DNA of 64,000 bases from Torpedo marmorata. Its lineage: Eukaryota. The stretch lies in contig OZ360246.1 in the NCBI GenBank assembly GCA_977017645.1, forward strand, positions 27,590,001 to 27,654,000. The letters run 5' to 3'. The notes beneath the pieces are model-generated. The model had not been told where the DNA came from. It was given only the letters and a program-made list of their open reading frames with translations, and searched no databases. Below are positions 1,528 to 60,309 of this stretch, piece by piece. The translations under genes and the position numbers were made by a program. The number at the start of each line of letters is the position of its first letter. The stretch's first letter is position 1.

Positions 1528-1906
1528 ATGTAGAACGTATTCATGAGGCTCCTGATGTGCCTTGTAACTGGTGGAAAGGCCTTGGGTGTCAGGAGGTCTC
1601 AACACAACCTTGGCTAGAGCACAGCTATATCTGGAGTGCAGGTCTTCTGTGCCACAAGGAACTGAATTCCAGACTTGCTCTGACTTGTTCTTGTAGCCAT
1701 AATACTTTTGTGGCTGGTCAAACTGAGTTGGTCAGTAGTACACTCTGGGATATTTTAGGTGGGGGACCTGGCAGTGGTAATGCCATTGAAAGTTGAGGAT
1801 AAAGAGATATATTGTTTTGTTCAGGATGGCTATTCCTGGCACTTTTGAAACACAAATTTTATTTGCTGCTATGGGCTCAGGCCTAAATACGATTTAGCTG
1901 CCAATA

Positions 1907-1979
1907 GGCTCCATAGCTCAGTGGTTAGAGCACTGGTCTTGTAAACCAGGGGTTGCGAGTTCGTTCCTCGCTGGGGCCT
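1907..1979 (+). tRNA. tRNA-Thr(TGT)-like sequence; probably a SINE head or pseudogene
   Basis: Full cloverleaf: acceptor GGCTCCA/TGGGGCC, anticodon arm CTGGT-CT TGT AA-ACCAG (anticodon 1940-1942), T arm GCGAG-TTCGTTC-CTCGC. Position 58 is T rather than A, position 48 is T rather than C, and no T4 terminator follows. Confidence 0.7.
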
Positions 1980-2108
1980 CATTTCTGTGAGGGGCGCTGG
2001 ACAAAGTAGCGACTCTCTGTCTTCCTTACGGTAGACAAAGTTAAAGAATTTCATGTATGTTACATTCTAAATGTAGTATTACGTGACAATAATGGAACCT
2101 TTACCTTT
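1907..2108 (+). mobile_element. tRNA-Thr-headed SINE-like retroposon with (ACCTTT)n tail
   Basis: tRNA head fused to a ~126-nt body nearly identical to 51023-51149 (reverse strand), ending TGACAATAATGGAACCTTTACCTTT. Confidence 0.85.
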
Positions 2109-3670
2109 ATAGGGCCAGGGCTGCTAATGGAATTAAGTAATGTGCAAACACCACCAGTTCTGACCTTATGATGGAAGGAATGTCATGGATGAAGCAGCTG
2201 AAGTTGTTTGGGTCTAGGACACTGCCTTAAGGAACTCCTGCAGTGACTCCTGGAGCTGTGATGATTGACCTCTGACAACCAGAACCATGGAAGTAACTCC
2301 AACCATTAATGCCTATTGATTTTAGCATTAATACTGAAATATTAACACACTGAATATTAATATATTCAGTATTAATATTCCAGTATTAATATAGCATATA
2401 TAGTAATAGTATATTAAAACTGAGGACATTGATGACATAGTCTTGTCAAGTGCTGCCTTGATGAAAAGAGCTGTACAGTACTCTGGTTCACTTTTGGTAT
2501 TCAGCTTTTTGGTCCATGTTTAAACCAAGACTGTTATGAAATCTGGAACCAGGTGCCTCTGGTGAAATCCATACTGTGCACTGGTGACCAAATGTCACTT
2601 GATAGTACTATTGGCGATGGCTTCCATTACCTTGCTTATTTAGTTATATGGTCAATTAGTTCTGTGTATTGCATGGCATTTTAGTTGGTGAGCACACAAG
2701 TATTATTTTAATCATACTGCTGTCATCTCCTCTCGTATTGCTAACCAATTCTCCTTTTTGAAGTAACAGATTGACACATCACAATTTTTAGGATTATTTT
2801 GTTCATACAGCACTGATGTTTTCTCTGGCCTGCCAGTATTATTTGAAACATAAGTTGTTTTTACCCTGTGTCCTCATCAAGCTTGTACATGAAGTCTTAT
2901 CAGTTTATATCTATTGATTATGTTTTTCAACTTTTTCAAGATTTTTATATCACTACAAATGTGCTATAGATTTTTTTTTTACTAAATGGGATAGCACTTT
3001 ATAATCCACGCAAAGTATAAATAAAGTTGGAAGGTGGTCACTGAAATGGAATAAGCAATTAATTTGAATGCTTATAAAATGCTGCTGCTGGAGACTACAC
3101 ATTCACAGCAAAATATGAGTTTCTGCACACATAGTTAGCATTATGGGAATTCATAAATTGTGCAGCAGTATATTGTGTCGCTTAAATACATTTTGGTATT
3201 TGTAAAGAAATGTGATAATGCACTGCAGAGTACTACATGTAGAAAGGCATTCTACTGATTGAATAACATTGATGTGAAACGCAGCAAAGGAATGGCTTAT
3301 TGATTTATCATAGAACAGTATTTTTTTTTAAAAATTGCTACACTTTTTAGAAAAATATTTTAAGACATTAATATGAATTTATACTAACCAGAACAAAACA
3401 ACATTTGTATCTGAGTGAGTGCATAACCTACTTTAAGATTGTTTTTGCTGCCACTCTAAACTTGACTGTAAAGCGCCTGAGTTGATTTTTATTTACAGCA
3501 TTGTCTCTTTGGGCAAGTATAAATGCTCTCCATAGCAACAAGATTGAGATTGTAAGATAGATATAAATAGTTATATACTGTTTAGTCTGTAACTATAATG
3601 GAAATATACTAATTTTTTTCTAATGTGGGCACAGTCAGTTAATTCTAACTGGTAGCTTTCTTTTTCGCAG

Positions 3671-16545: not shown

Positions 16546-17020
16546 CTGTAGACAGTTTATTTTCCTCACAGACTTCTGTTGAGAAATGTACCCTCAGTGA
16601 AATTAACATCCTTCTCACCGAACAAGATATTTTGTAACAAATTAACTTAAACAGCAGAATTCAGGATCAAACTTATTCAGTTTGCAGGCTTATGTACAAG
16701 AAGGTTGGCTTCCAGGCAGACATTATACTTGTAACAATTTGCAAAATAAAACAGATTTCAAGGTGTTGAGGTAGAAAACTTCAATAGAAGAAATCTTCAT
16801 ACTGGGCCATCACTGAGTGTACGCCTATCGGCAGAAGTTTGTGGGAAAAAATTGTGTATAGTTCTCCATTTGAAAGCAAGTAGCTAATGAAACCAAGATC
16901 AAATCTGGAACACATTATTTTGGTATCAGCCTATTTACAGATAGAAAATTATTTTTATGCTGCCATTGATATGTTTAAAATATTGACATTTGAATTGATG
17001 TTCATTTCTTTAATTAACAG

Positions 17021-20000
17021 GGAGGACCGGAGAGGATCATATCATGAATATCCTACAGATCGAGCATACTTTGAGGCAGTTAGGGGCCCAACTGCCGTAT
17101 TCCCTGAAGACCCTCGTAGAGACTATCGTGCAAGAAGTAGAGATTTTTATGCCGAATGGGATCCCTACCAGGGTGACTATTATGATCCTCGCTATTATGA
17201 AGATCCACGAGAATATCGTGACTACAGAGATCCCTATGAACAGGACATAAGGGAATATAGTTACAGACAGCGAGAAAGGGAAAGAGAGAGAGAACGTTAT
17301 GAATCTGACAGAGAACGAGACCATGAAAGGCGAACTTGTGAACGAAGCCAAAGCCCAACACATTCAAGAAGAGCCCAGAGTTGCAGTGCATCACCAACAC
17401 AATCTGAGAGGCATCAGAGTGACGGCGTGGAGTCTGAACGCCGAATATATAGTCGGTCTTCAGATCGTAGTGGTAGTTGTAGCTCACTATCTCCTCCTCG
17501 ATATGATAAAGTTGATAAGCCTGACAAAATCCGACCAGATCGTTATGATAAAAATGAAAAAGAAAAAGATCGACTGTTTGAACCTGAAAGAGTCGATAAA
17601 CGAACTCAAAGAAAAGAAAAAGTTGAGAAATTGGAAAGAGCAAAAAAGATTGAAAAATCTGAAATGGAGAAAACAGATAAGAAGGAGAAAACTGAGAAGC
17701 TCAAACTACGCAAGGTGAAACCTCCAACTCCAAGTTCCCCATCTTCTGAAACAGACCAGGAAGTAGATAGGGATCTAAATCTTGATGGACAAAAGGGTAA
17801 AATAAAACAAGGGAAAGAAAAAGCAGAGAAAGATGGGGCTTCAAAAAATCGTTTGGATTTAATTCCATGTGTAATATTAACTCGTGTGAAGGAGAGAGAG
17901 ACAAAAGTGATTGAACCCTTGATGTTAGAGAAATGTAGAGGAAAACCAGAAAATGATGTTGTCAAGTCTCCTCCTGTAGAACAAAATAAAGTACAGTTAA
18001 CACGACTTGATCAAACAAAAACAGAGCTGTCAAAATTGGAGCCTACTAGGCCAAAATTGTTAAAAGAGAAACTGCTTGCCAGCCAAATTGAAATTGTGGA
18101 TAATGATGCGAAAGTTAAGCACAAAAAGAACCTCAAATCCGAACTGTGCACTGATATACCAAATGCAATGGATATCGACAAACTGGAAGCTCGGAAGAGA
18201 CGTTTTGCAGATCCAACTTTAAGAACAGACAGGCAGAAGTTAGAGGTTAAACGAAGCAGTCAAGAGGAAGAGGAACTACGTCTAGGCCTAAAAAAACAAC
18301 CTGAGTTGGCTCCCTGGAGAGAAGTGGGTAAAGAAGGAGATTTGGACCGAAGAGCAGTGCGGAAAGAATTATTCAAACGAGAGCACAGAAAAATTAAGCA
18401 GGAAAAATTGCTTCCGGCATTCAGCCCCAGAGAAGGGCAGGACTCTGCCACTGTTTCTGTCGGGCTTGGTTTGCGACCCAATGTGGATATTCAGTCTCGA
18501 TTAAGTGAGGCATCTGAAGAATTGGTGGATGTTCAAGAAATTGGATTGAAGAAAGTAAACACACCAAAAACTCAGACTAAGGGAATTCTTCAGCAACTCC
18601 CTCCACATCTTGATGAGATGTCTGGAGAAGGGGAAATTAAAAGAGAAGAACGGAAGAGAAAATATAGTGGCGCTGAAGACACGAATGATCACAAATCCAC
18701 CCATGAGAAATTGCAGGTCGCTGATACAGAAGAGAAGCTTGGGATTGATATTGATTACACTCAGAGTTATAGGAAACAAATGGAGCAGAACCGCAGGCTT
18801 AAGCAGCAACAGGAAATGGAGATGGCAAAATCTGAAAAATTCAACAGCCCCAGAAAAGAAAATGCAGATGAATTTGAGAGAAGAAGTTTGGTCCATGAAG
18901 TGGGGAAGCCACCACAGGATGTCACAGATGATTCTCCCCCAGTTAAACGGAGAAAAACTGACCAGTTTGATTTTGAAATTAGCATGAAACGAGAGAGAAA
19001 TTACAGGAGTTCTCGTCAGCAAAGCGAGGATTCTGAAAAAACTCCCCTTTCTCCTGGATTTCGACATATTCTGTCTTATCAGGATGAGGATGATAACTCT
19101 GACTCTCCACATCAGACATTGCTACCAAAAGAACCTAAAGTTTCTCCAAAATTAGACTCTACGATTCAAGTTCCTGTTAGAGAAGAATCTTTAAAATGCA
19201 ATGCTAATGAATCAAGTAAACGAGAACAAATATTGGACTTGTCTAGAATTAAAATAACAACTCAGAGCTCTGAAGAGGAGACACCTCGATGGGAAATGCA
19301 CTTGAAACTAGATGCAAGTAGACCTGATGTTAGCTTTCCTAGTAGCATTATAAAACGAGATGGAATTCGCAAGCGTTCTGTGCGTGAGCTAGAACCAGGT
19401 GAAGTTCCGAGTGATTCTGATGAGGATAATGAACATAAATCTCATTCACCAAAAGCTTCAACTTCTTTTGAAAGTTCTAGATTACCTTTGTTTCTACGAA
19501 ATAGGGAGGATAGGATATCAGACTTAAAGCTATCAAGTTCTCTAGAAAGAAATAAATTCTACTCCTTTGCTCTTGATAAGACGATTACCCCTGATACTAA
19601 AGCTTTACTTGAAAGGGCAAAGTCTCTGTCTTCATCCCGAGAAGAAAATTGGTCATTTCTGGATCGAGATTCAAGGTTTGCCAACTTTAGGAAAGATAAA
19701 GATAAAGAAAAGGTAGAATCAGCGCCGAGGCCAATCCCCTCATGGTACATGAAAAAGAAAAAAATTAGAACAGATTCTGAAGGTAAAATGGACGAAAAGA
19801 AAGAAGACCATAAGGAAGATGAGCAGGAGAGGCAAGAACTATTTGCTTCTCGTTTCCTGCATAGTTCAATTTTTGAGCAGGATTCAAAACGCCTACAGCA
19901 CCTTGAAAGAAAAGAAGATGATTTGGATGTAATTTCTGGTAAATTATTTGGAAGGCAAGGATCTTTAGATGGCTCTAATAACACCCTAGAATTGATACAA

Positions 20001-23000
20001 GAACCTGTAGTCTTATTTCACAGTCGGTTCATTGAATTGACACGAATGCAACAAAAGGAAAAGGAAAAGGATCAGAAACCAAAGGAACTTGAGCGACGTG
20101 AAATTGAAAAAGAAGTTCAGCCTAAAACACTAGAATCTCTCCCCGAATCAGAGGTTAAGAATGCCATCCCTCTTTTTAGGACTCTTATACCACAGCCACC
20201 ACCACCATCAGTTGCTCCCCAGGTAGTTTCCCTTGAACCGCAAGAAGCTGTTCAGAATAAAGTAGTGAACGAAGCCTCAGTGGTAGAAAATGTAACTTCC
20301 AGCTCGGGGGAGAATCGTGCAGAATTTGCCTCTGCAACTGATGCCATGAAACCTGCTGTTGTTAGTGTGAGCCCTTGTGAAGAAGTAGAACCTATTGTAA
20401 ACAAGCAGTTAGATGCAAATGTTACTTCAGATGACATGGCTACTGAGGAGGAGATATCAGTTGGAGAACATCCCTCTTACTTGAATACTAAACCACCAAC
20501 TCCAGGTGGGACTGACTTGCAAGAAAACTGCACAAATCCGGAAACTGAGGTGCAAGAGCTTGTTGCAGATTCCTCCAAAATTAACAAAAAAGAAGTTGCA
20601 TTAGATGACCACAGAGGAGATAAAAATCCTTCCAACGCTGTTCAGTTGGATGTCAACCAGCAAGAAGAACATGTGGAGATACAGTCACAGATTTCAGATA
20701 ATGAAGTAGATACAGAACCTTCTGTAGGTGTAAAAGAGAAAAGGTCTTCTCAAACCAAAAGAACAAAGACTTCACTTCAGACAGTCATGGCAACCATCCC
20801 AGAAAAACCTGTCACTAGAAAAAGTGAGAGGATAGACCGAGAAAAGCTGAAGAGGTCATCATCACCCCGCGTTGACACTCAGAAACTTCAGGAGCAGAAA
20901 TCGGAGATAGAAAGAGTCTCAAAAAACACAGCAAAGTCTCCAAGTTCTGCCACAGAGTCTGAAGCTGTGGAGCCAAGCTTGCCTTTAGGTAGAACAAGAC
21001 GTAGAAATGTGCGATCGGTTTATGCAACAATTGACGATGGCCCAAATCTAACAAAAGACTTGGCTGATACATTACGATCAACCAGGAAAAGAGGTGATAA
21101 AGAAATTCATGAACCATCAAATGTACAAACTCCACCACGACGGGGAAGGCCTCCAAAATCCCGCCGTAGACTAGGAGAAGAAATCCCGTGTTTTAAAGCT
21201 GACCAAGTAAAACAAGAAGTTGAAGAAACAGAAACTAAAGACAATGTTGAAAGCACCAAACCTGTAGAAGGATGGAAATCACCAAGATCACAGAAAGCTG
21301 CACAGATTCATTCTTCACCTGCTTCAGCTGCTTTTAGCAGCCACATAGGAAAGAAAGGCATTAAATCAGAATCAAGAACATCTGAGATTTGTGTTGACCA
21401 TAGAGATGATGTTGCAGAGCCCTTGCCTGAGCAAAGTTCAAATGAAAACACCGTCAAAACTTTGCCAGATGAAAATGAGATGCTAAGTGACCAAAAAACA
21501 GATAAAAATGATGTTGTATTAGAGAAATGTTCTTCAGATAAAATTCCTGTTGAATTTGTAGATAAAAGAGTTTTGGAAAAAAGCTCAAAGTCAAAGTGTG
21601 GAAGAGGAAGGAATTCAAAGGCCAATGAAGACAAAATGTGTCTACGAAATTTGGAAATAAGACTTAGTACTGAAGAGTTAAAAGTTGTTAAAGGTGATGT
21701 AGAGGTGACTGGGACAGTGAAGAAAGACTCTGTGAAAAATGACAATCAGTCACCCAAGCTAATTAAAGAAGAAACAACTGATCCATTTTCAGAACCACCA
21801 AAATCACCAGAAAAAGAAACTCCAAAAATTGAGTGTTCACCAGAAGCTGTGCAACGGGCTAAGCAGATAGAACTTGAAAGAGCAGTGGAGAACATTGCAA
21901 AATTAACAGAAATCCCAACTGTACATCCTTACAAAGAGACTACAAATGATCCCGATGTCAGACCAGAGGAAGAAGTAGAAAAGCCTGCTCATCAGGCTAG
22001 TGAAACTGAGCTCGCAGCTGCCATTGATTCCATTATTGCAGATGAATCTGCAGAACCTGACAGCTTCTCATCTGCTCCAAGATATTCTGCTGAACAAACT
22101 GAGGCAGGTATCTCTGAAGATCAGATGGTACTCCCTACACCCCCTGATACATTACAGCCTGAAACTGATCAGGCAATTGTAAATATATTGGAGTCTAACA
22201 ATGATAGTGGTGCCTCAGGTCGGTTGTTGGCAAAAGCACCACCTTCAAGTCGTTTGATATCAAAGGTCCCAACTTCAGATCGTAGCATTTCTAAAGCCTC
22301 ACCCTCAGGCCTTTCCGTTTCTAAATCTCCAGCATCAGCAGATACTATGACTACAGAAGTTCCCTCCTCAGTGGAAAAAATAGTTTCTGAAGTTCCCTCT
22401 TCAACAGAGAGCATGATTTCTAAAGTTCCTACCTCAACAAATAGTGTAGTGACTGAAGCTTCTGTAGTAGTAGATCCCACCTTAGCAGACAGTGTAATTT
22501 CTAATGCTTCAGCTTCATTAGAAACTGTGATTTCTAAAGTTCCTGTCTCAGAGGAGAGCATATTATCTAAAGGCACCATTACAGAAGAGAGTGTGATATC
22601 TAAAGCACCTGTCTCTGTGGAGAGTGTGATATCTAAAGCTCCTGCCTCAGTGGACAGTGTGATTTCCAAAGCTCCAACCTCTGAGAATGTGATTTCTGAA
22701 ACTCCCATTGGAATAGTCAGTGTTGTTTCTCCAGTTATGTCTTCAGACAGTTTGGCTTCTAAAACCTCAACTGTGGACGATCAGTCAGCAGTTTCAATTG
22801 GTCCTGTTTCTAGATCTGCTTTATTGACTACTTTAGCTGAGGCAAAAGATGCTGACACATGCCTCCAGCAGTCTGAAAATATCTCCCAGAACACAGAGAA
22901 CCTTCCAAAACCAGAACCCGTTGAAGTCCCACGAACTCCAAGTCGAAGAGGACGCTCTAAACCTAGAATATCAAGACGTAATAGGCGGGGAAGCACCGGC

Positions 23001-25619
23001 AGGAAAGGAGAACTAGTAGATGGCAACAACTCTGAACCTGAGCCCGTGCCTATTTCTACTGACATTAAGCAAAGCTCTGTTACAACAGAAGCCATTGTAG
23101 AAAAATCTACAAAAAGAACAGTGGTGGAGCCACTTTGTGTTCCCAAGAGTGATATTGACAACCTGGCTAGATTAGAAGAGTGTAAACCTGATGAAATGAA
23201 AGTCACTGCACCACACAAGGAGTCAGTAACTGAAGCTATTTCACCTCAGGATCCACACCATTCTTCATGTAATGAAGATAACAAAAGTCCTCCATATTTT
23301 AAAATAAAACAACTCAATGACCATCCACCTGAGGCTCAACCTAAGCAAAGCATGTCAAGAGTAGCTATTACTGCACTCCCGGCCACCACTACTGCAAAGA
23401 TTTCAGTAACTCCAGCACCTATTTTGGCAGCTACACATGTCAGTTCTGGGGCTGTGTCAGATTGGATATCAAGACATGAGGCATCCCGTTCTTGTTCCAC
23501 GCCCCCTCCTGCTGCACCTCCCCCAGATACCAAAGCTTCTGATCTTGACACAAACTCCAGTACGTTGCGGAAAATTCTCATGGAGCCAAAATATGTGTCA
23601 GCCACAGGAGTCCCTACAACATTTGTAACTACAGCAATAAATGAACCATTGACTTCAGTTCGGACAGAAGAAACTTTTTCTTCAGCTGAAATCAACAAAC
23701 TGGTCTTGGATGAGAAGCCTACAGTTCCACCAAGCACTACTTCAGGGCAACAATTGGTAGAGGTACCGACCTTTAATGAGAAAGAAAAACATGTTGGTTC
23801 TTTGATCTCACCTAAAATTACTTCTGTAATAAGCAGAATGCCACCAAGTTTGGATCAAGAGGAAATGGCAAAAGTTTCAATGAACAACAGAGGCCCTGTT
23901 AACCTTCCGTCTCAGTCACCCAGCCTCACAAATATACCTCTGACAAAACAGAAATATCGGTCGAACTTGACTGAAAACAGCAGGTACAAGATTGGAACAA
24001 TGCCATTCATTGCAGATGAGTCTAGACCAGTGGATAATATGCAGTTAAATCAGGGATCAAGTCCAGGACTGAGAGTAAATACATCTGAGGGAGTTGTGGT
24101 ACTGAGTTACTCAGGCCAGAAGACAGAGGGTCCTCAAAGGATAAGTGCTCCAATCAGCCAGATTCCACCAGCTAGTGCAGTAGACATAGAGTTCCAGCAA
24201 TCTGTGTCTAAGTCACAAGCCAAACAGGAGCCAGTTTCACAATCACAACCTGTAACAAAAGGGTCACAAACTCCAACAGGCTATAGCAATGTGATTGGCA
24301 CTCATTCTTCAAGCATACTTGCTGGACATGGTGGCATTCAGCCATACAGCACACCACCTGTAATTTCAAGTATTAAACAGGAGCATCAGATTCTTGAAAA
24401 ATCTGAATCTGCTATCCATTCCCAACCAGCAGCAGTGAAGATTGTCTACAATCTTCTGCCAAACATTATAACCGCTAACAAAAAAGGTGGAGAACCAGTC
24501 GTTCCCAAGATTGAACCTGTCAAAGTTTCTCAACAGTCAACACTGAGCCCAGGAATCAGTACTCACCATGCTGCTATGCCAAGTAAGATGCAATCAGACA
24601 CTAACCACATCAGTTCTGGGCGTGGCACACCAACAGAACGTGCTCTGTCTCTGCCAGTTTCCATTAAACAGGAACCCCATTCCCCACACACATCTGTTCA
24701 TTCTCCTTCCTCATTTCCCAAAGTTTGCCAGCCTAGTAGCACATCTGCTTCCCAGTCAATAAATGCAAATGTGGTTCTGAATGCTGGCCTCACAATGGCA
24801 CAATTTGTTCCTAATGTCCATTTGCCAGAGCAGTCGGTCATTATGCCCCCTCACAGTGTGACACAGACACAGGTAGTCTCCTTAGGACATCTTTCTCAGG
24901 GCGAAGTAAGAATGAATGCCCCTTCAGTACCAGGTATCCCATATGGCATAAGACCTGAGACTCATCACCCCTCCCCCAGAGCTGTCCTCCAATCTCAGAT
25001 GGAACTCCGTTCCCAGCGATCAAACACACCACAGTCAACAGTTATCAGGGACTTGTGTATGCCTCAGATATCCAATCAGCATCAACCTGATGAAGAATTA
25101 CTCCATTATCATGGGATTAGAAGAGGGTCAGGTCCCCTACAAACTGATGTACTTGTGATGCAGCCAGACTACAGAATTCATCCTGGAGGTTTACGATTGG
25201 ACCAATATAATGTACCCCAGGAGATGCTGCTGCGTGACGTTCGGATGATGTATCCACCTCTGACAGCAGTTGGTGATGTCCACAATGAATCCAGACAAGC
25301 CAGGACCCCAGAAGGATCCGTTAAAACTCCACCAGCTAGTAAAACTACTCCTCAGCCAACAAAAGAGGCGCCTAAAACATCTGAAGTGAAAATGGCAAAG
25401 TCACCTCACAGTGAAGCTAGATTGATCAATGTCCCCCCTGGATTGCCCATGTCTCAGTCTGTCATGGTCCCCCATGGCGTTCAGCTCATGCATCAGGTTC
25501 CTAGTTCCTTCCATGACTATCCACGTGTTTATCCAGATCTTAGGAATTTCCATCCTTCTCACCTCAGTCACCCGCAGTTTGGTGGAATAAACCTACCATC
25601 ACACAGTATGACTCCTCAG
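17021..25619 (+). CDS. SPEN: SPEN giant exon (8599 bp): RE/RS-rich region, receptor-interaction region, RBPJ-binding motif
   Basis: aacag|GGAGGAC...CCTCAG|gtatgt inside the 2939-aa ORF; SPEN motifs YEQDIREYSYRQRERE, LEARKRRFAD, APRPIPSWYMKKKK, ETELAAAIDSII, GLRVNTSEGVVVLSYSGQK. Confidence 0.97.
22219..22770 (+). repeat. Coding minisatellite, ~30-33-bp unit encoding (E/D)SVISKAP(A/V/T)S(V)
   Basis: Best copies GAGAGTGTGATATCTAAAGCACCTGTCTCTGTG / GAGAGTGTGATATCTAAAGCTCCTGCCTCAGTG at ~22587-22685; roughly 15 degenerate units. Confidence 0.85.
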
Positions 25620-26184
25620 GTATGTACAGCATTTTTTCTGCAATGCTTCTTCCCCTTAAGCAATTCTGTTTTGGAATTATTGTTATCTATGATACTGTAT
25701 TGGTGAGGGAATACAATGCAGCTTGTGAAATATATTCCTGAGAACAACAGTGCTCAAGACTGCATTAATCAATTCTGATTGTCATTGTATCCCATAAACA
25801 AATTGTGAAGTCGGCCAACCTTTTGGACTTTGCTGTATATGTCAGTTTCTGGAACCTACGTGAATTCCAAGCTTAGTTAAATTCTTATGATTCCAGAATT
25901 GTAAAATTCAGGAGAACATTTTGGCATGTGCTAGCTCTTAAATGAGCAATTCTGATTGTTTCTACCCTGCAATTTTTGTTGTCTTTCCAATTCTAGTTTC
26001 AGTGGAGTTCCACAATCATTTTGGGCAAGGATTTCTAAATCATAAGAGTTGCAATATCAAAAATAAACCTCTTCAACTCTGAGTCTTTTACCACTTACCT
26101 TAAATAGGTCTCTCATGGTTTCTCACTCTTCTGTTTCTGAATAATGTTTCCTTTTTGCTCTCTCAAAACTTCATAATTTTGAGC

Positions 26185-41775: not shown

Positions 41776-43814
41776 GTAATCCAGGAAATTAATCCTTTCA
41801 GCTGACTTTTGACATGACAAGGTCAATGCACAGGGGAACAGTGTTCAGCAGTGGTCTCTCTTCTCACAAACATTCAGCATTTTAAGGAGGCTGGTCTATG
41901 TGTATAATTATGTCACTTCAAAGCAGTCAAGTTTGAATTCTTTAGCACAATAAAAAATTGCTCGTCTGAACAGAACAGATAGATCTTTGTCAAGTGGTAC
42001 TAAATCTATTTCCTCTGGAGCAAGAGCAGAATTTTGGAACCTAACAACTGTCCAGTATTCCTGTGCCATGAGTAATAGAATTGCAATTCAGTACAGGCTA
42101 TTTTGTTTAAATTGTATGCATCATATAGGTCACTAGTGATCAGGTACAAAGAATCCTGCACCAGTCATCCAATCCTCATGGCAATGAATCATGGGTGAGA
42201 AGAGTTGTGGAAGCAATGTTTTTTATTACAACTGAATAAAGCTTTATATCAGCTTAATGTCAGGATTTAGAAATCTATAACAATAGCAACCAAATTGGTG
42301 AGTTACGTGTTTTTCGATTGGTTCGGAGGAACAAACGCTACTGACTTAATAACAATGAAAACAATTTACACTAATCTTTAAAAGCTCTACGTTAAAATAT
42401 AAAAAGCCTTTGTCCTGACCTCTACCAAGCTGTGAGAACTGCACTGATTTGGTCTCTGAATAAATTGGTCTCCTGGTCAGTGGTTTGGTTTGCAGTTGCA
42501 CACACTGCATCACTGAACGAATGGTTGGGCAGGAAGTGGTTGGGATTGGTGGAAATTTGGGTGCTTCCTGGATTGAAACATGATCATGGAATCAAAGGCT
42601 GTCCACAATCCACAAAAACATCAACATAAGAACTTGGAACTGAGTGGATCAAAGCCCCTTGAGCCTGCTCTACCATTTAATGTTTTAAATTTATTTACAG
42701 CACAGTAGAAGCCAATTCCGGCCATTGAAACCCGTGCAGAGGGCGGCACGGTTGGCGTAGCAGTTATCAGGGTCATTAATGACAATAAATCTTCCTTGCA
42801 GATCATGATGCTCAATGCCCATTTTTATAGCATTTCTGTTGAAGGGTATCTCAGTTAAACTTCAATCTGTGTTTCTTTAAGAAGCTGCTGTTAACTGTCC
42901 AACATCTGCAGTTTTCATCTGTACCTTGCAGCACATCTTTCACTGCCATGTTGTATATGTTGATGCAGTGGTTCTGCCCTGCAATATGGGAACTGCACTC
43001 AATACTGCTGTTCTGAGCACTTTGAAACCATAAATTTGGCAATAATTTCTTAATGAATAAGCCCAAAGTCAATGAGAACCAGAGATATTGAACAAAAGTT
43101 GAAGTATATCATGTATATTACATTTTTAATTATTTCATGTCAAGAAGAGGAAACTTTAAAGGAACCTTTGACCTGCTGTTAACTTTATATTTCATGTACA
43201 AGAATCCCCAGATCCTTTTGTACCATAAAAATCAAGTCTTTCTCCATTAAAATAGTTTGCTTTTTCATTCTTCCTTGCAAAGCAGTTCATCTCACATTTT
43301 CCTACATTACACTCCATCCGCCAACTTCAAGCCCACCAACAACCTATTTATATCTTATACATTGTATTGAAAGTATATCCAGTTTATAAAAAAAACAATA
43401 CTTTCACTGTCTTAAGATCAAATGCTGAGAAATTCTCACGCTTCCGAGATGAACAGAAATTTAGCAAGGCGTTTTCTAATACTCCTGAGATATTTGTATA
43501 AATAGCACTTGGAATTAAAAGTCTTGGCATCAGAGTAGAACTCCTCCACACTTCATCCTTTTAATTGTGACTCAGCTCAGACCCACGTGATGTTTACCAG
43601 CTGAGAATGTACTCAATTCCTGTCCTACATTGTCTACTAGTGGCAACGAAGAGGCAGCACAGGCAGAGAACAGGAACCATTTGCAGAGGGAACTGGATGA
43701 GACTGGGACAATAACCCATATTCCACATCAGTTGAAGGCTAAAGTATAATTTGAAATGGGCAGAACTAAATACACCTGGAACTCCCAGTGTCCAACTATT
43801 TTAATACCCCCAAG

Positions 43815-50367: not shown

Positions 50368-50645
50368 CTACTGTGAGGGATTCTGGCAGCTCAACACTGG
50401 TGTCTGTTCGGCAGCCGTGGTCGGGAGATCCGTCCCGTCCCGTGTTCGGAAGAAGAGCTCTCCCGGTTGGATGACGTGTTCGGTTTGCCAGCTGCCATTG
50501 CTGTACTGCTGGTAAAAGTCCGTGTCAGCCTGGAACATGACCAGGGCCTGAGCTGTGTGAATGCGCACGTGCTGCGCCAGACTGTTGGCATCCAGGAACT
50601 TCTCCCCACAGGAATCACAGGCGTACAGGATGTGAGCATTTGGAT
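50368..50645 (-). CDS. ZBTB17: ZBTB17 (Miz-1) last coding exon, isolated zinc finger 13, stop TAG
   Basis: tacag|ATCCA; DPNAHILYACDSCGEKFLDANSLAQHVRIHTAQALVMFQADTDFYQQY... Confidence 0.96.
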
Positions 50646-50814
50646 CTGTAGAGAAAACAGCCAGCGAAGATGGCATTAACTAAAATATCCAATGCTGAAC
50701 TAAACAAGTCCAATGGCTGACAGTGACCCAATCTCACAGTGAAAATACATCATGATTTTTACTAAATTGGAAAGCTATAATATTGTTTCACAGAAACCTA
50801 GGAAGCCATCCCAA

Positions 50815-51010
50815 TGCAGCAAAGGATAGCTGCACTCTCAGAGGTGACACCCTATAGGCAAGTTAAATCAACACTGCCCTCTGAGGGAGATGTAAACAAT
50901 GCCATGAAGAAGAGGGGGTTATTCCAATGTCCTTCCCTCAATCAACATTTCTAAACCTTGTTTATGGGAATTTACTTGCTGTTGCACTTCCCACGTTACA
51001 ACACTTCATG
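50815..51010 (+). mobile_element. Degenerate DeuSINE (SacSINE1/AmnSINE1-like Deu domain)
   Basis: GCTGCACT..GAGGTG, GAAGAAGAG.GGG, CCCTCAA.CAACAT and TTACAACA blocks in Deu-domain order (consensus recalled from memory). Confidence 0.55.
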
Positions 51011-51022
51011 TGGGGAACAGTT

Positions 51023-51266
51023 AAGGTAAAGGTTCCATTATTGTCACGTAATACTACATTTAGAATGTAATATACATGAAATTCTTTAATTTTTGTCTAC
51101 CGCAAGGCAGACAGAGGGTCGCTACTTTGTCCAGCGCCCCTCACAGAAACCTACAGCACCTGGTGTTCCTTGGCGGTCTCCCCTCCAAGTACTGACCAGT
51201 CCTGTGCCTGCTTAGCTTCTGAGATCAGACAATCCCAGTCGTATTCAGGCTACTGGTGCTGTAGAG
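51023..51266 (-). mobile_element. 5S rRNA-derived SINE (SINE3) with (ACCTTT)n tail
   Basis: Minus strand: ~120-nt 5S-like head followed by TTTCTGTGAGGGGCGCTGGAC... body shared with 1982-2107. Confidence 0.88.
51147..51266 (-). pseudogene. Diverged 5S rRNA-derived head
   Basis: GTCTGATCTCAGAAGCTAAGCAGG (A box), AGTACTTGGAGGGGAGACCGCC (C box) and GGTGCTGTAGGTTT 3' end; 5' third strongly diverged from vertebrate 5S. Confidence 0.85.
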
Positions 51267-51447
51267 CTGCAGTTGGCATATAGTGGGGAATAGGTGCAGG
51301 TGGGAAAAGTGGGGTACAATGGAGGCACAGTAGGGAATAAGTCGAAGAGATATCAAATTGTGGTGTTTAGATTGCATTCTAGGTGTTGAGATGACTTCAA
51401 TACCGAAGCCCTAATAACAAAACACTTATCCCCTCCCCGTTGCTCAC

Positions 51448-51537
51448 CTGCCTCCTGAACCTGTTCCACTGCTTTTGTAATCTCTGCCTTCAGGACCTCC
51501 GTTTCATCTGTAGTTACAGCCGTTGCCACCGGGACCA
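51448..51537 (-). CDS. ZBTB17: ZBTB17 exon (linker between zinc fingers 12 and 13, Myc-interacting helical region)
   Basis: ttcag|TGGTC...GCAG|gtgagc; VVPVATAVTTDETEVLKAEITKAVEQVQEA; 90 bp. Confidence 0.95.
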
Positions 51538-51574
51538 CTGAAAGAAAACAGCAATCAAACCAATCTTCATGAAT

Positions 51575-51653
51575 ACAGAGACCAAACACCAATGGGAAAT
51601 CAGAACATTATCAGTGACAGGGATCAAACACCAATGGGAAGTCAGAAACATTA
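51575..51653. repeat. ~42-bp tandem repeat, interrupted by the Chapaev3-like element
   Basis: CAG(A/G)GA(C/T)CAAACACCAATGGGAA(A/G)TCAGAACATTA twice; the unit resumes as TTATCAGTAACATGGA at 53086. Confidence 0.75.
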
Positions 51654-52059
51654 CACTGGACAACGAAGATGTTGCTTCCTGAACACTTTTGGGTGTATTT
51701 TATGAATTTTGGGCTGATCACAAAAATCACCTTAAAATTTTCCTATCACGTACCATTTTTTTAAGATATAACCTATTTTTGTGATCTCCTGTCATATATT
51801 GTCTACTTCAAGCATACAAAACCATGAAGTGCAACATGTCATTGAAAATTCATTTTCTGCATTCGCACTTGGACTTCTTCCCTGCTGATCTTGGAGCAGT
51901 CAGTGCAGAAAGGTTTCACCAGGACATTGCGACCATGGAAAAGTGGTATCGGGGCAACTGGAATCCATCAATGCTGCCTGACTATTATTGGACACTGATA
52001 CAAGAGGCATCAGTTGCTGACTACAAACGAAAATCAGCAGCAAAACATTTTTAGGTCAG

Positions 52060-52878
52060 ATTTCAGATTTATTGTCAGAGTACATACATGGCATCACATA
52101 CAACCCTGAGATTCTTTTTTCTGCGGGCATGGCAGAATTACCACTAATTGGTAGTGCAAACAAACTGTACACAGCGTATACATGTAAACAAATAAAGAAC
52201 TGTAAACAGATAACGAATGTAAACAAAATGACTGTGCAATACAGAGAAAAAAAATCAATAAAGTGCACAAGTAAGAGTCCTTAAATGAGTCCCTGATTGA
52301 GTTTGTTGTTGAGCAGTCTGATGGTGGAGGGGTAGCAGCTGTTCCTGAACCTGGTGGTGCGAGTCTTGTGGCACCTATACCTCTTTCCTGATGGCAGCAG
52401 CGAGAACAGCATGTGTGCTGGGTGATGTGGATCCTTGATGATTGCTGCTGCTCTCCGACGGCAGCATTCCCTGTAGATCAGTGGTTTTCAAACTTTTCTT
52501 TCCACTCACATACCATAAGTAATCCCTATGTCATAGGTGCTCTGTGATTAGTAAGGGATTACTTAAAGTGGTATGTGAGTGGGGAAAAAAAGGTTGAGAA
52601 CCACTGCTCTAGACCCAATTGTTATTGAAATATTTTGCTTGAGAAACATTGTCATTGGCCCATTTCCTTTGGAGTTATGAAACCGTGCACATAATGAGTC
52701 AATTAGGTACGATTAAAACAAGCCTGGATGTCAATGTCTTAGAGTCTATGGCATAGGGATTACTTAAGGTGGTACGTGAGTGGAAAGAAAAAGTTTGAAA
52801 ACCACTGCTGTAGATGTTCTCGATAGTGGGGAGGGTTTTGTCTGTGATGTCCTGGGCTGTGTCCACTACCTTTTGGAG
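52060..52878 (-). mobile_element. Rex1-like LINE 3' fragment nested in Chapaev3
   Basis: LQKVVDTAQDIT..LPTIENIY RT C-terminal motif; tail AATAAA(TCTGAAA)n; GGTCAG repeated at both junctions. Confidence 0.78.
52479..52807 (+). mobile_element. Composite hAT/Charlie-like MITE nested in the Rex1-like LINE
   Basis: CAGTGGTTTTCAAAC...GTTTGAAAACCACTG with perfect 8-bp TSD CTGTAGAT (52471-52478, 52808-52815); internal TIR at 52592-52606. Confidence 0.88.
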
Positions 52879-53334
52879 GGTCAGTTGAACTAACACAATG
52901 TGTCAGCATCATTATGCGATTAAACATGCTAAATTCAATAAAAGTTAATCTAATGTTTCTCCAACTTTATATGTAATACTGTACAGCAAATCTGAAACTA
53001 TCTTTGTGTTCAGTTTGAAATTGTCTATCATAATCCCCAATTTTTTTCAGGATGCAAATCTTTTGAAAACATTTGTTGTCCAGTGTTATCAGTAACATGG
53101 ACAAATATTGCAACACCCATTCACCTCGGGAACATCTTTTGGCTGGTGACATTTGTGTCCACATGAGTAAATCATGATGACCTTGATTTGATCAAATTTC
53201 ACATTGCAAACTCTTGACTTATTGGCCATTTTATTTATTTCAAAATTATATTATTTCAAAATGTACTTTATTCATAAAGGTTTCTAAAATATATAAATAC
53301 AGAATGTTCAAGTCAACATCCCAATAACAATAAT

Positions 53335-54277
53335 GATAATGTGGGAAATTGAATCAGCAAGTTTGCTGATGACACTACGATTGGAGGCGTTGTGGACGGC
53401 GAGGAAGGTTTTCAAAGCTTGCAGAGGGATCTGGACCAGCTGGAAAAATGGGCCAGAAATGGCAGATGGAATTTAATGCAGACAAGTGTGAGGTGTTGTA
53501 TTTTGGAAAGACAAACCAAGGTAGGACATATACAGTAAATGGTAGGGCACTGAGGAGTGCAGAGGAACAAAGGGATCTGGGAATACAGATACATAATTCC
53601 CTGAAAGTGGCGTCACAGGTAGACAGGGTTGTAAAGAAAGCTTTTGGCATCTTGGCCTTCATAAATCAAAGTATTGAGTATACGAGTTAGGATGTTATGG
53701 TGAGGTTGTATAAGACATTGGTGAGGCCAAATTTGGAGTATTGTGTGCAGTTCTGGTCGCCAAACTACAGGAAGGATATCAGTAAGATCGAAAGAGTGCA
53801 GAGAAGATTTACTAGGATGTTGCCGGGGCTTCAGGAGTTGAGTTACAGGGAAAGATTAAACAGGTTGGGACTTTATTCCTTAGAGCGTAGAAGAATGAGG
53901 GGAGATTTGATAGAGGTTTACAAAATTATGAGGGGAATAGACAGAGTAAATGCGAGTAAGCTCTTTCCACTTAGATTAGGAGAGATAAATACAAGAGGAC
54001 ATGGCTTTAGGGTGAAAGGTTTAGGGGGAACATTAGGGGGAACTCCTTCACTCAGAGTGTGGTGGGAGTGTGGAACGAGCTGCCGTCTGACGTGGTAAAT
54101 GCGGGCTCACTCTTAAATTTTAAGAATAAATTGGATAGATACATGGATGGGAGAGGTCTGGAGGGTTATGGAATGGGTGCAGGTCAGTGGGACTAGCGGA
54201 ATGACGTTTCAGCACAGACTAGAAGGGCCGAATGACCTGTTTTCTGCGCTGTAGTTTTCTATGGTTCGATGGTTCTA
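53335..54277 (+). mobile_element. 5'-truncated CR1 LINE (RT C-terminal half)
   Basis: ISKFADDTTIGG, KWQMEFNADKCEVL, LYKTLVRPNLEYCVQFWSP, RRRMRGDLIEVYKI; (ATGGTTCT)-type tail. Confidence 0.93.
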
Positions 54278-54468
54278 AGTGTCGATATTCCACGATCTAC
54301 CTTAATGTATTATCAAATTTACAAACTTAAATAGTTCCTGCCTTCTAACAAGAGTTTTAACTAATTTGTCTGCAACAGCAGAAGCATCCAGAACTGTGGC
54401 CTTTCCCTGCAGACCCTTCACAGTAGGTGTTTTATAAATGGTAACTTTATTTACAATGCTCCAAACTG

Positions 54469-54682
54469 TAGTAAAACCCCTGGTATCTGGCACCTAGGGG
54501 ATTGGTAGATGCCAGTAAAGTGAATTTTCCGGTTGCTTCAGATTGCGTGTTGCATGATTGGCAACTAACGGCGAGGTGCGCCAATTTTAAACTTCCGTAT
54601 TTTTTACCTATTTTCTGCAATTTTTTTGCCGGTTGCTTGAGGCTTTTGGTTGCTTGAATTCTGTATAACAGGGGTTTTACTG
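54469..54682. mobile_element. Tigger/pogo-like MITE
   Basis: TIRs AGTAAAACCCCTG...CAGGGGTTTTACTG followed by TA. Confidence 0.7.
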
Positions 54683-54852
54683 TATTTTACTGGCAAGGTT
54701 AGATTTTTTTTTAAAAGCTGCATGCCCTATCGTACCAGATGCCTGACTGGTTGAAGTCACTTTCTGAAACTTATTTCTCTGCTCTCAATGTTTCAACATA
54801 TCTATCGACAGAACCAACGATACTATATAGTCACAGTAATGGCAACGCTCAC

Positions 54853-55077
54853 CTGTCAGCTGGGTCACGGCTGTAGCGGCCAGAGCCTCAGTTGCCAAGG
54901 TAACCATTGTATCCGTTGTGACAGTGACAACATTCCTGTCTTCATCTTCATCTTCGTCTTTGCTTTTGAGTTTTTTCAGTCCCGTCTTTCCCTGATGCAC
55001 GGTTTTAACATGCGAACGGAGGTTGTCAACCCGATTGAAGCCTCGTCCACACGTGTCACAGAGATAGGGCTTTTCAC
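54853..55077 (-). CDS. ZBTB17: ZBTB17 exon, zinc finger 12 and linker
   Basis: tgcag|GTGAA...ACAG|gtgagc; GEKPYLCDTCGRGFNRVDNLRSHVKTVHQGK...MVTLATEALAATAVTQLT; 225 bp. Confidence 0.96.
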
Positions 55078-55439
55078 CTGCACGGGAAGTGGATGGTTAC
55101 AGGTATCAGCACTGAACCATCTCCTGCACACAGCCTACCTGCACTGGTTATTCTTCATTGAAATGGGCCCCAAATTATAAGCAACACTCATTGATCAGAT
55201 CGCAGATTATTCCGCCATACTCATACTCTCTCAAGACATAAGGAGGCTCCATGTTATATGGAACAGACTTTAACCAGCCATTTTCCATTTGAAACAGTAG
55301 ACAACAGAATTTTTTAAATGCCTCGAATGCTACCTGACATCTTTAACTAGATACCAGAGTATTTGCATGTAGAAGTATTTCCTTCACTCCTAAAAGCTTA
55401 TACCTCACCACGTCTTAGCTTCTTTAACCAATTAAAACA

Positions 55440-56600
55440 TTCTCTCTATGTCTTCTCCAATTATAAAATCAATCAAATCATCACTTGACTTTCAAATTTC
55501 AAGGAATAAACCTGCTATTAAAGTCAACCCTTGGATTCATTCAAGTCAATCTCCCCTTTTCTCTCTCTCGAAGCTTCATAAATACTTCCCAACATGTATG
55601 CACAAGTTAAGTTATTCCAGGTGTAGTCTAATGAGGGCTTCATATAGCTATAGTGTAACTCCTAGTCCCCTGTACTCAAATACTCTAGATATGAAGACTA
55701 GCATTTCTTCCCTGTACCCATCTTTACCATTTTACAATCTATGTACATGTCCCTTTGGACGTCCACCATATTTAACTTTCTCTGTCTGATTTGTCTGAAA
55801 TAGATGCCCTCATATTTGCCAAGATCAAAATCCATTTGCCACACGCACATGAGAAATAGAAATGTGGGATATTTGCCTTCCTTGAATCTTCCTCATCAGA
55901 TGGTTGATCTTTTATCTCAGCATCACTTTTCCACATCCCTTAATTGCCCAAATATCCAAACTCCAACTATCTCTACCTCAGTGAACGAGCCTCCACATCC
56001 CTCTTGGGTAGATTCACTCTCCTCTGGTGTGAAGAATGTCTTTTCATCTCTGTCCTGAATGGTCAACACATTATTTTGAGTCCCCTGTTTCAAGACACCC
56101 CAGCCAGGGGAACATTGTCCTTGCACTCATCATTCTAAGCCCCAGTATTGGGCTAGTTTGCTTAATCTCTCCTCAGACAAGTTCCCCAAAGCCAGGAAGC
56201 AATTTGGTGAAACTTTGCTGCACTTTCTCTCTTCCAAGTATATCCTTCCATCTGTAGGGACACCAGAGTTGTACAAGTGAGTCTCACAAGAACCCAATAT
56301 AGTTTCAGTATGATGCCTTTGCCCTTGCATTCAGATCCAAAGTTTAAAAGGGCAAAACACCTTTTACCTTCCTGTTTTTTGCTGTACCTACACATTTGCT
56401 TTCAGTAATTAACGTGCAAGAACATTCTGGTCCCTCTGATAACAGCACTTTTCAGTCTTTAACACTAAAGTCTTTCTCTTTTCCTCACCAACATTTCCCT
56501 ACACCCATCTTCTGGGTATGGCTTTCTGCCACATCATCCAAATTATTTATTACACACTGTAAAGTTGTGGATCCACTTTGCTGGACCCCACTGTCAATTT
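55440..56600 (-). mobile_element. Very degenerate CR1 fragments
   Basis: Scattered CR1 RT-like blocks on the - strand (e.g. LKLYWVLVR); boundaries approximate. Confidence 0.45.
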
Positions 56601-56696
56601 GACCACCTCGCTGTTATTCCTCCTCGGTGTCTCCTGCTGTTCAGCTACTTACCTAATCAGCTCAATAGTTTGCCTTTAAATAAGAGAGTCTCTCTC

Positions 56697-57700
56697 GGCC
56701 CTTTTATAGTGGAAAAAAAAGCAATTGTAAAGACAGATATTCTCTGTCTTTAAAATGCTTCACTTACCTCCATAAAAGGTCCGAAGGAGGATTGATTGGT
56801 CGAACTCGCTCCATCTTCCATCCGCCTAGGGGGGTTGACTCAGAGGTGGAGTGAAGTCGCTCCACCTCCTGTGTAAAAGGATTGCCGCTGAAAGCGGCTC
56901 CAAACAGGAAGGTAAGATGATTGACGTCGCGCTGACAGCCCTGTCGGCCCGCTGCGCTGTCACAGAGCGGCCGGTGGAGCTGTCAGGCTGCGCCCGCTCA
57001 CTCCACCACGCTCCTCACGCCACCCGCTCCCTCACGCCGCTCCCCCACCCCGCCCCTCCCCTCTCCCTCACACCGCTCCCCCGCCCCGCCCCTCCCCTCT
57101 CCCTCACACCGCTCCCCGCCCCGCTCCCTCACGCCGCCCCCCGCCCCGCTCCCTCATGCCGCCCGCTCCCTCACGCCGCCCCTTGGACCGAATGGCCGGG
57201 ACTCTGCAAGCTCCTGGCGGCGGCACCGCTTCATTCAACGCTGGGTGTACGGGGCTTGCAAATTCCATGAACTGCGCAGCGGGGCTGTCAGGATGGAGTG
57301 GGATCGGTGTGGGGCTGATAGGGGGGAGATGGGGCAAGAGGAAGGGGGAATGGAGAGAGGGAGGGGGTGGGTGGGGAGGGAGAGGAATGGAGGAGGAAGG
57401 GAGCGGGGCGGGGGACTGTCAGGCAGTGGGGCTCAGGCAGCGGGATGGGGGGCTGTCAGGCAGCAGGGTGGTGGGGCTCAGGCAGCGGGGCTCAGGCAGC
57501 AGGGTGGCGGGGCTGTCGCAGGCCAGCCACTACTATGCTGCACATCCCGTCCCCTTTTGCCCTGGGAAGCCGGCGCGCTGCTCTGGGCTACATAAAAGGA
57601 CTGCGCTATCCGCCTTTTCCGTCCTCTGCATAAAAGGTAAATTCGCCTTTTTTTTAAAAAACGAGCAAGCGATAATGCGGCTTTTGTGCATAAAAACCCC
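56697..57700. repeat. GC/CpG-rich insertion with internal minisatellites; possible non-autonomous DNA transposon
   Basis: (CCCCGCCCCTCCCCTCTCCCTCACACCGCT)-type and (GGGGCTCAGGCAGC)-type repeats; recurring RTAAAAGG/CCTTTT motifs near both ends. Confidence 0.55.
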
Positions 57701-58764
57701 TTCTCACTGCTCCCCATCTGCATTCCCCGCTAACTACCCTCAATAATTTGCCTTCAACTGTTAGAGGTCCTTATCAGATGTATTTTGGACATGCGTAAAG
57801 ATATTTTAATCACCTTGTCAAAAGATTTAATGAGGTTCTTCAAGCATTACCTACCCATTACAAATCCAGGCTGCCTCTTTCTCATTAACAGAACATTTTC
57901 AAACACTCTATCCTTAATTACAGAGTGGTGATATTTCCCAATTGCCAATTACAGATTAACAAATCCATAATTCCCTCTTTTCCGTTTCACACCTTCCTTA
58001 AATAACAGAGTAACATGCATGATTTTCTATGATAAAGGAATGCTTCTCAAAACGAGAAACTTTAGAGGATTATAGATACGGCATTGATAATGTCTTCACC
58101 CAATTCCTCAAAACTCTGGGATGGACAAGTTCATGAATTTTTCCTGACAGTTGTTAGGTTCGTGTTATGTTTGATATCCCAATCCCTGATTCAATACTAG
58201 TTTCCTTTGGATATCCAGGAATTTTGATCAGCATTACAAGTTTTTAAGTGTTCATTTTGCTATCCATTACAAGTTTCTGTCTTTGATACCCCTTGGAAAT
58301 TATAAACTTTAGCAAACCTCAGATTATACCAGGTACTCTTTAACCAGGGTGCAGATTATACTGTTTGCACAATCAACTGGCTCCACATCGTGGATGACTG
58401 GATCCAGAAGCCCAGTTCTGTGATTATAAACTAGGTGTCAGGTGACATCTGGTCTTGGATCCAGAACAATAAAAAAAAAATTTTTTTAATTGTGGCACGC
58501 AAAATCCAGTTGAACCTTTTATTTGAAGTTGTACTTCTACCATGTTTCTTTCAGCTCCAGAGACAAGACAATCAGCCTTGGATCCACGTAGAGTGTGACA
58601 AACGCACGACTTATGCCATGGAACTGCAATGGAGTTCTGAATTGACTAGTTGCTTCTGGTATCTGTCATTTCAAATTCCTGAGATTTGAGCAATAATAGT
58701 CTCTGTTACTAATTTGTTGATGCCTCAAAACAGCAACAAAATGCAGGCCTGGATCATTCCAATG

Positions 58765-59045
58765 CTGTAAAACCACAATGCTGGAGAAACTCAGCAGGTC
58801 AAACAATGTACTTTATGTAGCAAAGATAAAGATACATCACCAACGTTTCAGGCTTGAGCCCTTCATCAAGGTATGAGTAAAATGTAGGCAGGTGCCCGGC
58901 CTTGAAGAAGGGCTCAAGCCCAAAACGTTGGTTCTGTGCTGTATTTTTATCTTTGCTATATAAAGTACATTGTTTGACCTGCTGAGTTTCTCCAGCATTG
59001 TGTTTTTACTTCAAGCACAGTGTTTGCAGACTTTCATGTTTTACT
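58765..59045. mobile_element. Penelope pLTR inverted pair (~100-bp arms, ~28-bp spacer)
   Basis: 58769-58871 is the near-perfect reverse complement of 58900-59007. Confidence 0.85.
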
Positions 59046-59353
59046 CATTCCAGTGCTGACCAGGTCAGCTCTGCCTTTGCAAAGAATATCATTTGGAGAC
59101 AAATTAAAATTCTAAAATTGGAAGTTCTTGTGCTCATATTTTTCACATTTATCCTGGTTATCCTGTTACTATAAGCACTGAACCGGCATATTCACGCTAA
59201 TTTTAACCATTCTTTGCACAACATCCGTCAACAGTGGAAATCTTCTCAGCATCACGGATTTGAAGAGGACTCGTCTCAGAAATCACTGCAGCTTGGGGTC
59301 TGTGGGTCCTGAATACAGATAGACCAAGGTCAATGGCATCTGCTGCGCCTCAC

Positions 59354-59484
59354 CTGTGTGGATGATGACGTGCTTGGCAAGGTCGCCGGCATTGACGAAC
59401 GCCTTGTTACAGATGTGGCACTGGTGCGGCCGAATGTTGTCGTGGTGCCGAATATGATTGGCCAACTGGCTGGACTGCGTAAAT
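59354..59484 (-). CDS. ZBTB17: ZBTB17 exon, zinc fingers 10-11
   Basis: ctaag|ATTT...ACAG|gtgagg; [45 protein letters not shown]; 131 bp. Confidence 0.96.

Positions 59485-59916: not shown

Positions 59917-60309
<393 letters not shown>

Follow-up and report, generated by a model that had tools for sequence, protein, structure and literature searches.

Two SINE Families with a tRNA-Thr Head and a 5S rRNA Head on One Tail in the Genome of Torpedo marmorata

Introduction

Pairs of SINE families in which a 5S rRNA-derived and a tRNA-derived head stand on a common LINE-derived 3′ part have already been described in springhare, coelacanth, and moth. In springhare, Ped-1 (5S) and Ped-2 (tRNA/ID) have the same partner LINE, BovB_Pca (PMC3747384), and both are listed as bipartite RTE-derived SINEs (PMC5786205). 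Similar LINE-derived 3′ sequences are also reported for CoeSINE4 (tRNA) and CoeSINE5 (5S) of coelacanth and for HaSE1 (tRNA) and HaSE3 (5S) of Helicoverpa (PMC5786205), in passages that give neither a donor gene nor a junction mechanism. The SINE3 class, which includes zebrafish SINE3, OS-SINE1, and AmnSINE1, has a 5S-derived head on a LINE-type tail, as do the elements described here; the passages on this class list a Deu domain and CR1-type or RSg-1 partners, and vertebrate SINE3 families are reported to be moved by the CR1 clade (PMC7245038). In addition, a tRNA-headed SINE with the partner Rex1-24_NV, SINE2-5_NV, is listed for the sea anemone Nematostella, with no 5S-headed sister beside it in that list (PMC3747384). 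The exchange of heads and tails by template switching is the standing model (PMC5499810, PMC5786205), and in the model of Kojima a SINE is born by a template switch onto a non-autonomous LINE derivative (PMC5786205). Most inferences of head exchange between SINE classes are based on families that are old and diverged.

Here, we describe a pair of families from Torpedo marmorata, whose genome contains both SINE families as well as the sources of their parts, namely a tRNA gene, the 5S gene, and the element that donated the tail. The analysis covered a window of 64,000 nt, by which we mean the whole stretch of DNA analyzed, and searches of the genome of 6.22 Gb. Like Ped-1 and Ped-2, the pair comprises 5S- and tRNA-headed SINEs in one genome on a common, likely LINE-derived part, and, as in CoeSINE4/5 and HaSE1/3, different Pol III heads stand on similar 3′ parts; because such pairs were already known, the original prediction that this could be an undescribed kind of system did not hold. 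The structures differ. The LINE part of Ped-1/Ped-2 is described as belonging to the RTE clade and as combining 5′ plus 3′ UTR, and the 3′ parts of CoeSINE4/5 and HaSE1/3 are likewise given as RTE-derived, with a central domain in HaSE1 as well, whereas the T. marmorata pair has a 3′ end alone, which is Rex1-like. The RTE 5′ UTR plus 3′ UTR body structure of the Ped-1/Ped-2 and CoeSINE4/5 type was not found in it, and the pair is set apart by a body that is collinear over its whole length with one donor 3′ end; since the whole body aligns in this way, there would be no room for a central domain (Deu, CORE, or V-SINE). The tRNA head of T. marmorata is a near-perfect gene copy, whereas the head of Ped-2 is described as an older SINE (ID). 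The likeness to SINE2-5_NV is one of published description. As in Kojima's model, as far as its published passages go, a small-RNA head was added to a non-autonomous element, although no more than the last 125 nt of an ~850-nt element were kept in this case. We regard the case as an unusually clean head replacement of an already known type, the family having been compared with the known ones by published description.

Results

Two copies of the SINE were found in the window. On the forward strand, ARAGORN identified a tRNA-Thr(TGT) at positions 1907–1980, and the Rfam tRNA model matched 1907–1979 with 67.6 bits; C48T and A58T are the only differences between this head, of SINE2 form, and the genomic gene. 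On the reverse strand, a 5S rRNA-derived head of SINE3 form was matched by Rfam at 51148–51266 (53.4 bits, model positions 1–120). The common body occupies 1982–2108 (+) behind the tRNA head and 51023–51149 (−) behind the 5S head, and the alignment of 1982–2107 with 51149–51023 was identical in 121 of 127 columns (95.3%, E ~3e-53), which confirmed the prediction of one body with about six differences under two heads. Identity between the copies begins at a TTT directly after each head (1982–1984 in the tRNA-headed copy), so that the switch had been rightly placed exactly at the head–body junction. The same TTT is present in the donor element described below, at the end of the 5S gene, and in the terminator of the tRNA gene, and it may have provided microhomology. 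Between the tRNA head and the TTT lies the dinucleotide CA (1980–1981). The body contains a TGACAATAA motif at 2084–2092 and two ACCTTT repeats at 2097–2108.

Over 1907–2108, the window copy has the majority base of its family at 202 of 202 positions, and 68 others differ from the majority at 1–11 positions (mean, 4.6); this copy is either very young or has been well preserved. It has the leader TA, which precedes 5 of the 37 full-length tRNA-headed copies. The window also contains a giant SPEN/MINT exon at 16884–25703 (+; 2940 codons) and, facing it, zinc-finger exons most like ZBTB17 at ~50500–60300 (−), between which the 5S-headed copy sits. An RT-linked RNase H reading frame of an LTR-type retroelement at 63245–64000 (−) runs off the window end.

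We then counted both families in the whole genome by exact patterns, which give lower bounds. The 5S junction had 13,614 matches and the tRNA-Thr junction 705; the tRNA-Thr-headed family is 19-fold rarer than the 5S-headed family. A 29-nt body word had 8,925 exact matches compared with none for its reversed control, and the body match is therefore far beyond chance. Among the first 30 body matches, 26 had a 5S head, 3 had a tRNA head, and 1 was truncated, and 20 further matches, 12 of them chosen as lacking both junction patterns, added 18 5S heads, 1 tRNA head, and 1 rearranged copy. Both forms are dispersed and multi-copy, with the same tail. The many uniform copies of the SINE3 form have a 5S-derived head with its internal promoter region, and the tRNA-derived head of the SINE2 form has A and B boxes, the A box region being unchanged and the B box carrying A58T; no run of four or more T was found inside either form. 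Head and tail of the tRNA-headed form move as one unit, as seen from the 705 matches, the single junction type, and the near-fixed changes presented below. Because these 705 matches are dispersed, the tRNA-headed copy is not a genomic tRNA gene beside a truncated SINE3, an alternative that the original prediction had itself raised and that is now ruled out.

One clear target site duplication (TSD) of 15 nt brackets head plus tail. TSDs of at least 8 nt were found for 8/60 tRNA-headed and 2/53 5S-headed copies, compared with 36/1118 control pairs; poor TSDs are usual for CR1-group elements. The median divergence from the column majority was 1.9% in each family, which indicates that the two families amplified at about the same time.

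A set of 70 tRNA-headed copies was selected by the junction alone. All 70 carried T58, 67 carried T48, and 67 had CA at the junction. One hairpin position of the body, at 2023 in the window, was T in 66 of them and G in 40 of 40 5S-headed copies. A single junction type together with private, near-fixed changes in head and body means that one captured head was amplified, with no repeated sampling, and the tRNA-headed family likely arose once, by one head swap. Within this family, minor subfamilies with junction variants of their own (L157, L158, L161, and L177; L155 and L179), in the form of a 4-nt duplication and of CG-CCT, show that there were several source copies. Copies that combine the tRNA head, or its last bases, with 5S-type body states (L019, L035, L043, L154, L178, L182, L183, and L233) are either recombinants or early intermediates. 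In the 5S-headed copies, a head variant at 5S positions 96–97 and a C/T body variant were found in each of the four possible combinations, a pattern suggestive of recombination or template switching between source elements.

A third head was found neither among the 50 sampled body matches, nor among 29 matches to a pattern excluding both junctions, nor among 6 matches to a CCA junction pattern; the exclusion pattern covers only ~3/16 of possible flanks, and a small third family could escape it. The 29 exclusion matches consisted of 15 headless copies beginning at TTT, 11 copies with damaged 5S heads, and 3 others (one internal duplication, one donor-family element, and one copy interrupted by an insertion). 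ARAGORN found a tRNA in the 400 nt upstream of none of these 29, and Rfam, run on 20 of the loci, returned 5S, one tRNA that was the Thr head again, and weak miRNA-hairpin matches. The 6 CCA matches were two tRNA heads with T73 changed to C and four headless copies, so that T73-CCA was present in 0/6.

These results bear on the reading first put forward, namely that the heads are interchangeable and that an ongoing promoter-sampling system captures mature, CCA-ended tRNAs repeatedly. Two heads do exist, 9 of 102 tRNA-headed copies have 5S-type body states, and the frequent occurrence of all four variant combinations in 5S-headed copies hints at template switching between SINE RNAs. However, the single junction type, the near-fixed private changes, the lack of T73-CCA, and the lack of a third head within the sampled and covered matches make repeated sampling highly improbable, and we retain the capture of one head.

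The common body corresponds to the 3′-terminal ~125 nt of an older, non-coding element of ~850 nt (98/128 positions identical to copy L187; z = 22.6), with which it aligned end to end and collinearly, the opening TTT included. The donor element is common and diverse, being present at 33 examined loci, 12 of which were chosen for it, and has no obvious coding frame; at the loci L027, L141, L184–L195, and L223, its 5′ part is GC-rich and starts at a AAGATGGCG-like motif, and its 3′ end is Rex1-like. Among the examined loci, we found neither an autonomous parent of this element nor a LINE match to its 5′ part. A likely decayed 3′ remnant of the donor family lies in the window at 43092–43158 (+), with 75–76% identity to the SINE tail. 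At L141:616–1630, a locus selected for its changed junction, an ~815-nt donor-family element sits exactly between tRNA head and body, and the donor family was thus still moving after the tRNA-headed SINE arose. The body is predicted to fold strongly (z = −5.7) into hairpins, in which compensatory changes were found in 0/23 pairs among the donors.

A TGACAATAAA-like motif followed by a short repeat terminates several LINE families that have RT and PF09004 domains, the domains being shown for one family. The combination of RT and PF09004 is one that we take to be typical of Rex1, and this motif with a short tandem repeat closes the otherwise distinct 3′ ends of six or more Rex1-type LINE families. 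Among nine LINE tails compared, two resembled the SINE 3′ end with its ACCTTT repeats and TGACAATAA (z = 4.8 and 3.7; z ≤ 2.7 for the other seven), and a young donor copy resembled the same two Rex1-type tails (z = 7.4 and 6.9); none of the nine matched the SINE tail closely. A Rex1-type family from the PF09004 search, which gave 268,505 candidates in the genome, was rejected as the partner because its tail did not match (z = 0.7). Rays are listed among the Rex1-richest vertebrates (PMC13343379). From these tail sequences, a Rex1 link of the SINE tail is likely, and Rex1 would then be an addition to the LINE partners known for vertebrate SINE3 elements.

To place the two heads in order, we compared each with its own gene. 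A Rfam search recovered a 5S rDNA tandem array at G000:C25:86.20–86.56 Mb (spacing ~3.2–3.8 kb; 47 scored matches), for which a sequence pattern had given 0 matches. The 5S head was identical to the genomic 5S gene at 97 of 120 positions (81%), its 3′ promoter half being better kept than the 5′ half, and the tRNA head was identical to its gene at 71/73 (97%). The 5S head is thus the more diverged, as had been predicted, and the distances suggest that it is probably the older: it lies 19% from its gene and the body lies 23% from the nearest donor found, compared with 3% between the tRNA head and its gene, and only 2–3 diagnostic places distinguish the two bodies. Ancestry of the 5S version is therefore upheld as probable, by an argument of distance. 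The further argument that the TTT is the 3′ end of 5S and proves its ancestry was dropped, since the older donor element has TTT at the same place. The hairpin position was G in 10 of 11 aligned sequences (the 5S-headed copy and all nine donors) and T only in the tRNA-headed copy, from which it follows that the T is derived. In the body tree, all bodies of both families grouped together, separated from three donors by a stem of 0.13 (support 99/95); within this clade nothing was resolved and neither family was rejected as a clade, so that the tree left polarity undecided and was set aside as evidence on that point.

The two families could also have been born independently, with 5S RNA and pre-tRNA joined in two separate events to one donor subfamily and no descent of either SINE from the other; the TTT border belongs to the donor, the tree nests neither family in the other, and the closest donor may be unsampled. 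Yet a long stem separates the two bodies together from all donors found, they start at the same base, and the 2–3 diagnostic places at which they differ are near the 3% by which the tRNA head departs from its gene. We consider independent births improbable, and derivation of the tRNA-headed family from the 5S-headed one is preferred.

Regarding the source of the tRNA head, the 73-nt tRNA-Thr sequence is present in two genes, L062 and L067, both intact with their own trailers. L062, at G000:C40:146.37 Mb, has the leader GT and a trailer beginning with CG, and L067, the second identical gene, has the leader CT and the trailer TA, one change away at each end. GT precedes 19/37 full-length tRNA-headed copies. 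A search for other junctions gave 32 matches, of which 19 read CG: gene L062 itself, 16 verified SINE copies, and 2 further matches. About 3 CG copies would be expected from the A-to-G background (11/2134) compared with the 16 found, an expectation that assumes ~650 independent copies, some CG copies sharing a minor source. Two copies with a TG junction also point to an original CpG. The CA at 1980–1981 is likely a decayed CG of the tRNA gene trailer; its earlier reading as a CCA remnant was dismissed, given the absence of T73-CCA from the CCA-junction matches and the fit of the CG variant to the real trailer of L062. CG copies were also considered as ancestral intermediates and rejected, because 5S-type body states showed no significant excess in them (3/18 vs. 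6/84; p = 0.19).

The CG variant and the GT leader, both matching L062, favor a precursor tRNA, and the evidence points to the precursor tRNA-Thr of an L062-type gene as the donor RNA, not the mature CCA tRNA. Three other loci (L064, L068, and L170, at G000 C48:11.29 Mb, C80:21.45 Mb, and C49:65.20 Mb) are copies of a second tRNA-Thr(TGT) gene, L065, with at most 5 nt of leader and 13–15 nt of trailer to the terminator, joined to the 5′ part of another SINE, which we take to be a V-SINE-like repeat. They are likely pre-tRNA template-jump chimeras, and their trailers, reaching the terminator, indicate that pre-tRNA-Thr has been captured in this genome. Template jumping, named at the outset as the route of capture, is the likeliest route.

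A DNA-level origin was weighed against it. A headless, 5′-truncated 5S SINE might have inserted 2 nt behind a tRNA-Thr gene duplicate and removed its terminator, read-through then giving a source element in which A58T arose later by methylation of the tRNA-folded SINE RNA and miscopying. Headless copies starting at TTT exist, as 15 of the 29 exclusion matches, and the GT leader and CG trailer would fit directly, whereas the template-jump model must assume the loss of 3 nt, since the L062 trailer has 5 nt before the T-run and the SINE keeps 2. However, the base at −3 is A in 16/19 GT-leader copies and C in the gene, the only two genes found with this tRNA sequence are both intact with their own trailers, and a first-generation copy with C48 and A58 was not found. 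We judge this origin unlikely and hold to a template jump onto precursor tRNA.

Discussion

We proposed that the tRNA-headed family arose by one head swap, in which a reverse transcriptase copying the 5S SINE tail jumped onto precursor tRNA-Thr and gave rise to the rarer family; on balance, we think this probably correct, with a good deal of room for error. In this model, 5S RNA would first have been joined to the 3′ end of the ~850-nt element. Pol III would have transcribed the resulting 5S SINE, using the internal promoter of its head, and a Rex1-type LINE enzyme recognizing the tail would have copied it. At the TTT border between head and tail, the cDNA may have switched to the oligo-U end of pre-tRNA-Thr(TGT) from an L062-type gene, with leader and trailer each contributing 2 nt at the capture. 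The methylated A58 would have been miscopied as T, either at the capture or in an early round. A single tRNA-headed source lineage would then have amplified alongside the 5S family, and the weakened B box may account for its lower copy number. With their bodies only 2–3 places apart, the two families make it possible to compare Pol III promoters of the 5S type and the tRNA type directly on one tail.

The two changes in the tRNA head were considered separately. C48T is an ordinary CpG change. A58T alters a conserved adenine of the B box, the gene having A58-T59, and position 58 of tRNA carries m1A (m1A58). Published passages list position 58 and describe very efficient dATP misincorporation where m1A is followed by U (PMC4787781), with enzymes that are not shown there to be LINE enzymes. 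Such misincorporation would read as A-to-T, and A58T at this one site fits a reverse-transcription error at m1A58. The three pre-tRNA chimeras keep A58, base 59 being A in them. Three SINE copies with A58 were also considered as founders and rejected, since their number matches the ~2 expected from reversion. No early tRNA-headed copy with both C48 and A58 was found, and the order of the head changes is therefore not seen. Per-copy miscopying at m3C32 was rejected as well: 6/70 copies appeared to support it at first, but after better alignment the count was 4/101 compared with a background of 1.35% (p = 0.049, uncorrected), and other sites were similar.

As a tentative and rather doubtful extension, a Rex1-moved vertebrate 5S SINE may have exchanged its head for an unprocessed pre-tRNA of an identifiable gene, with the fixed A58T standing as a fossil of m1A58 in ~700 loci, written by a LINE reverse transcriptase. 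If this is true, fixed changes in young tRNA-derived SINE heads would be a readable record of RNA modification. Neither a description of this family nor an m1A58 trace in a SINE was among the literature matches listed (the best 25 of 1,970 in one loose query).

Words of window positions 1800–2250 were present at 0.22–0.73 in 17 of 24 listed public runs from 7 organisms, the top run being possibly the source sample; as a lead only, this shared sequence hints that relatives may have the SINE family. The parts consulted of a shark and ray genome preprint contain no occurrence of "SINE" and report abundant tRNA loci (10.1101/2025.06.08.657570). The 67.6-bit tRNA score of the window copy has a practical side: with hundreds of similar copies present, the number of tRNA-Thr(TGT) genes in such genomes could be overestimated.
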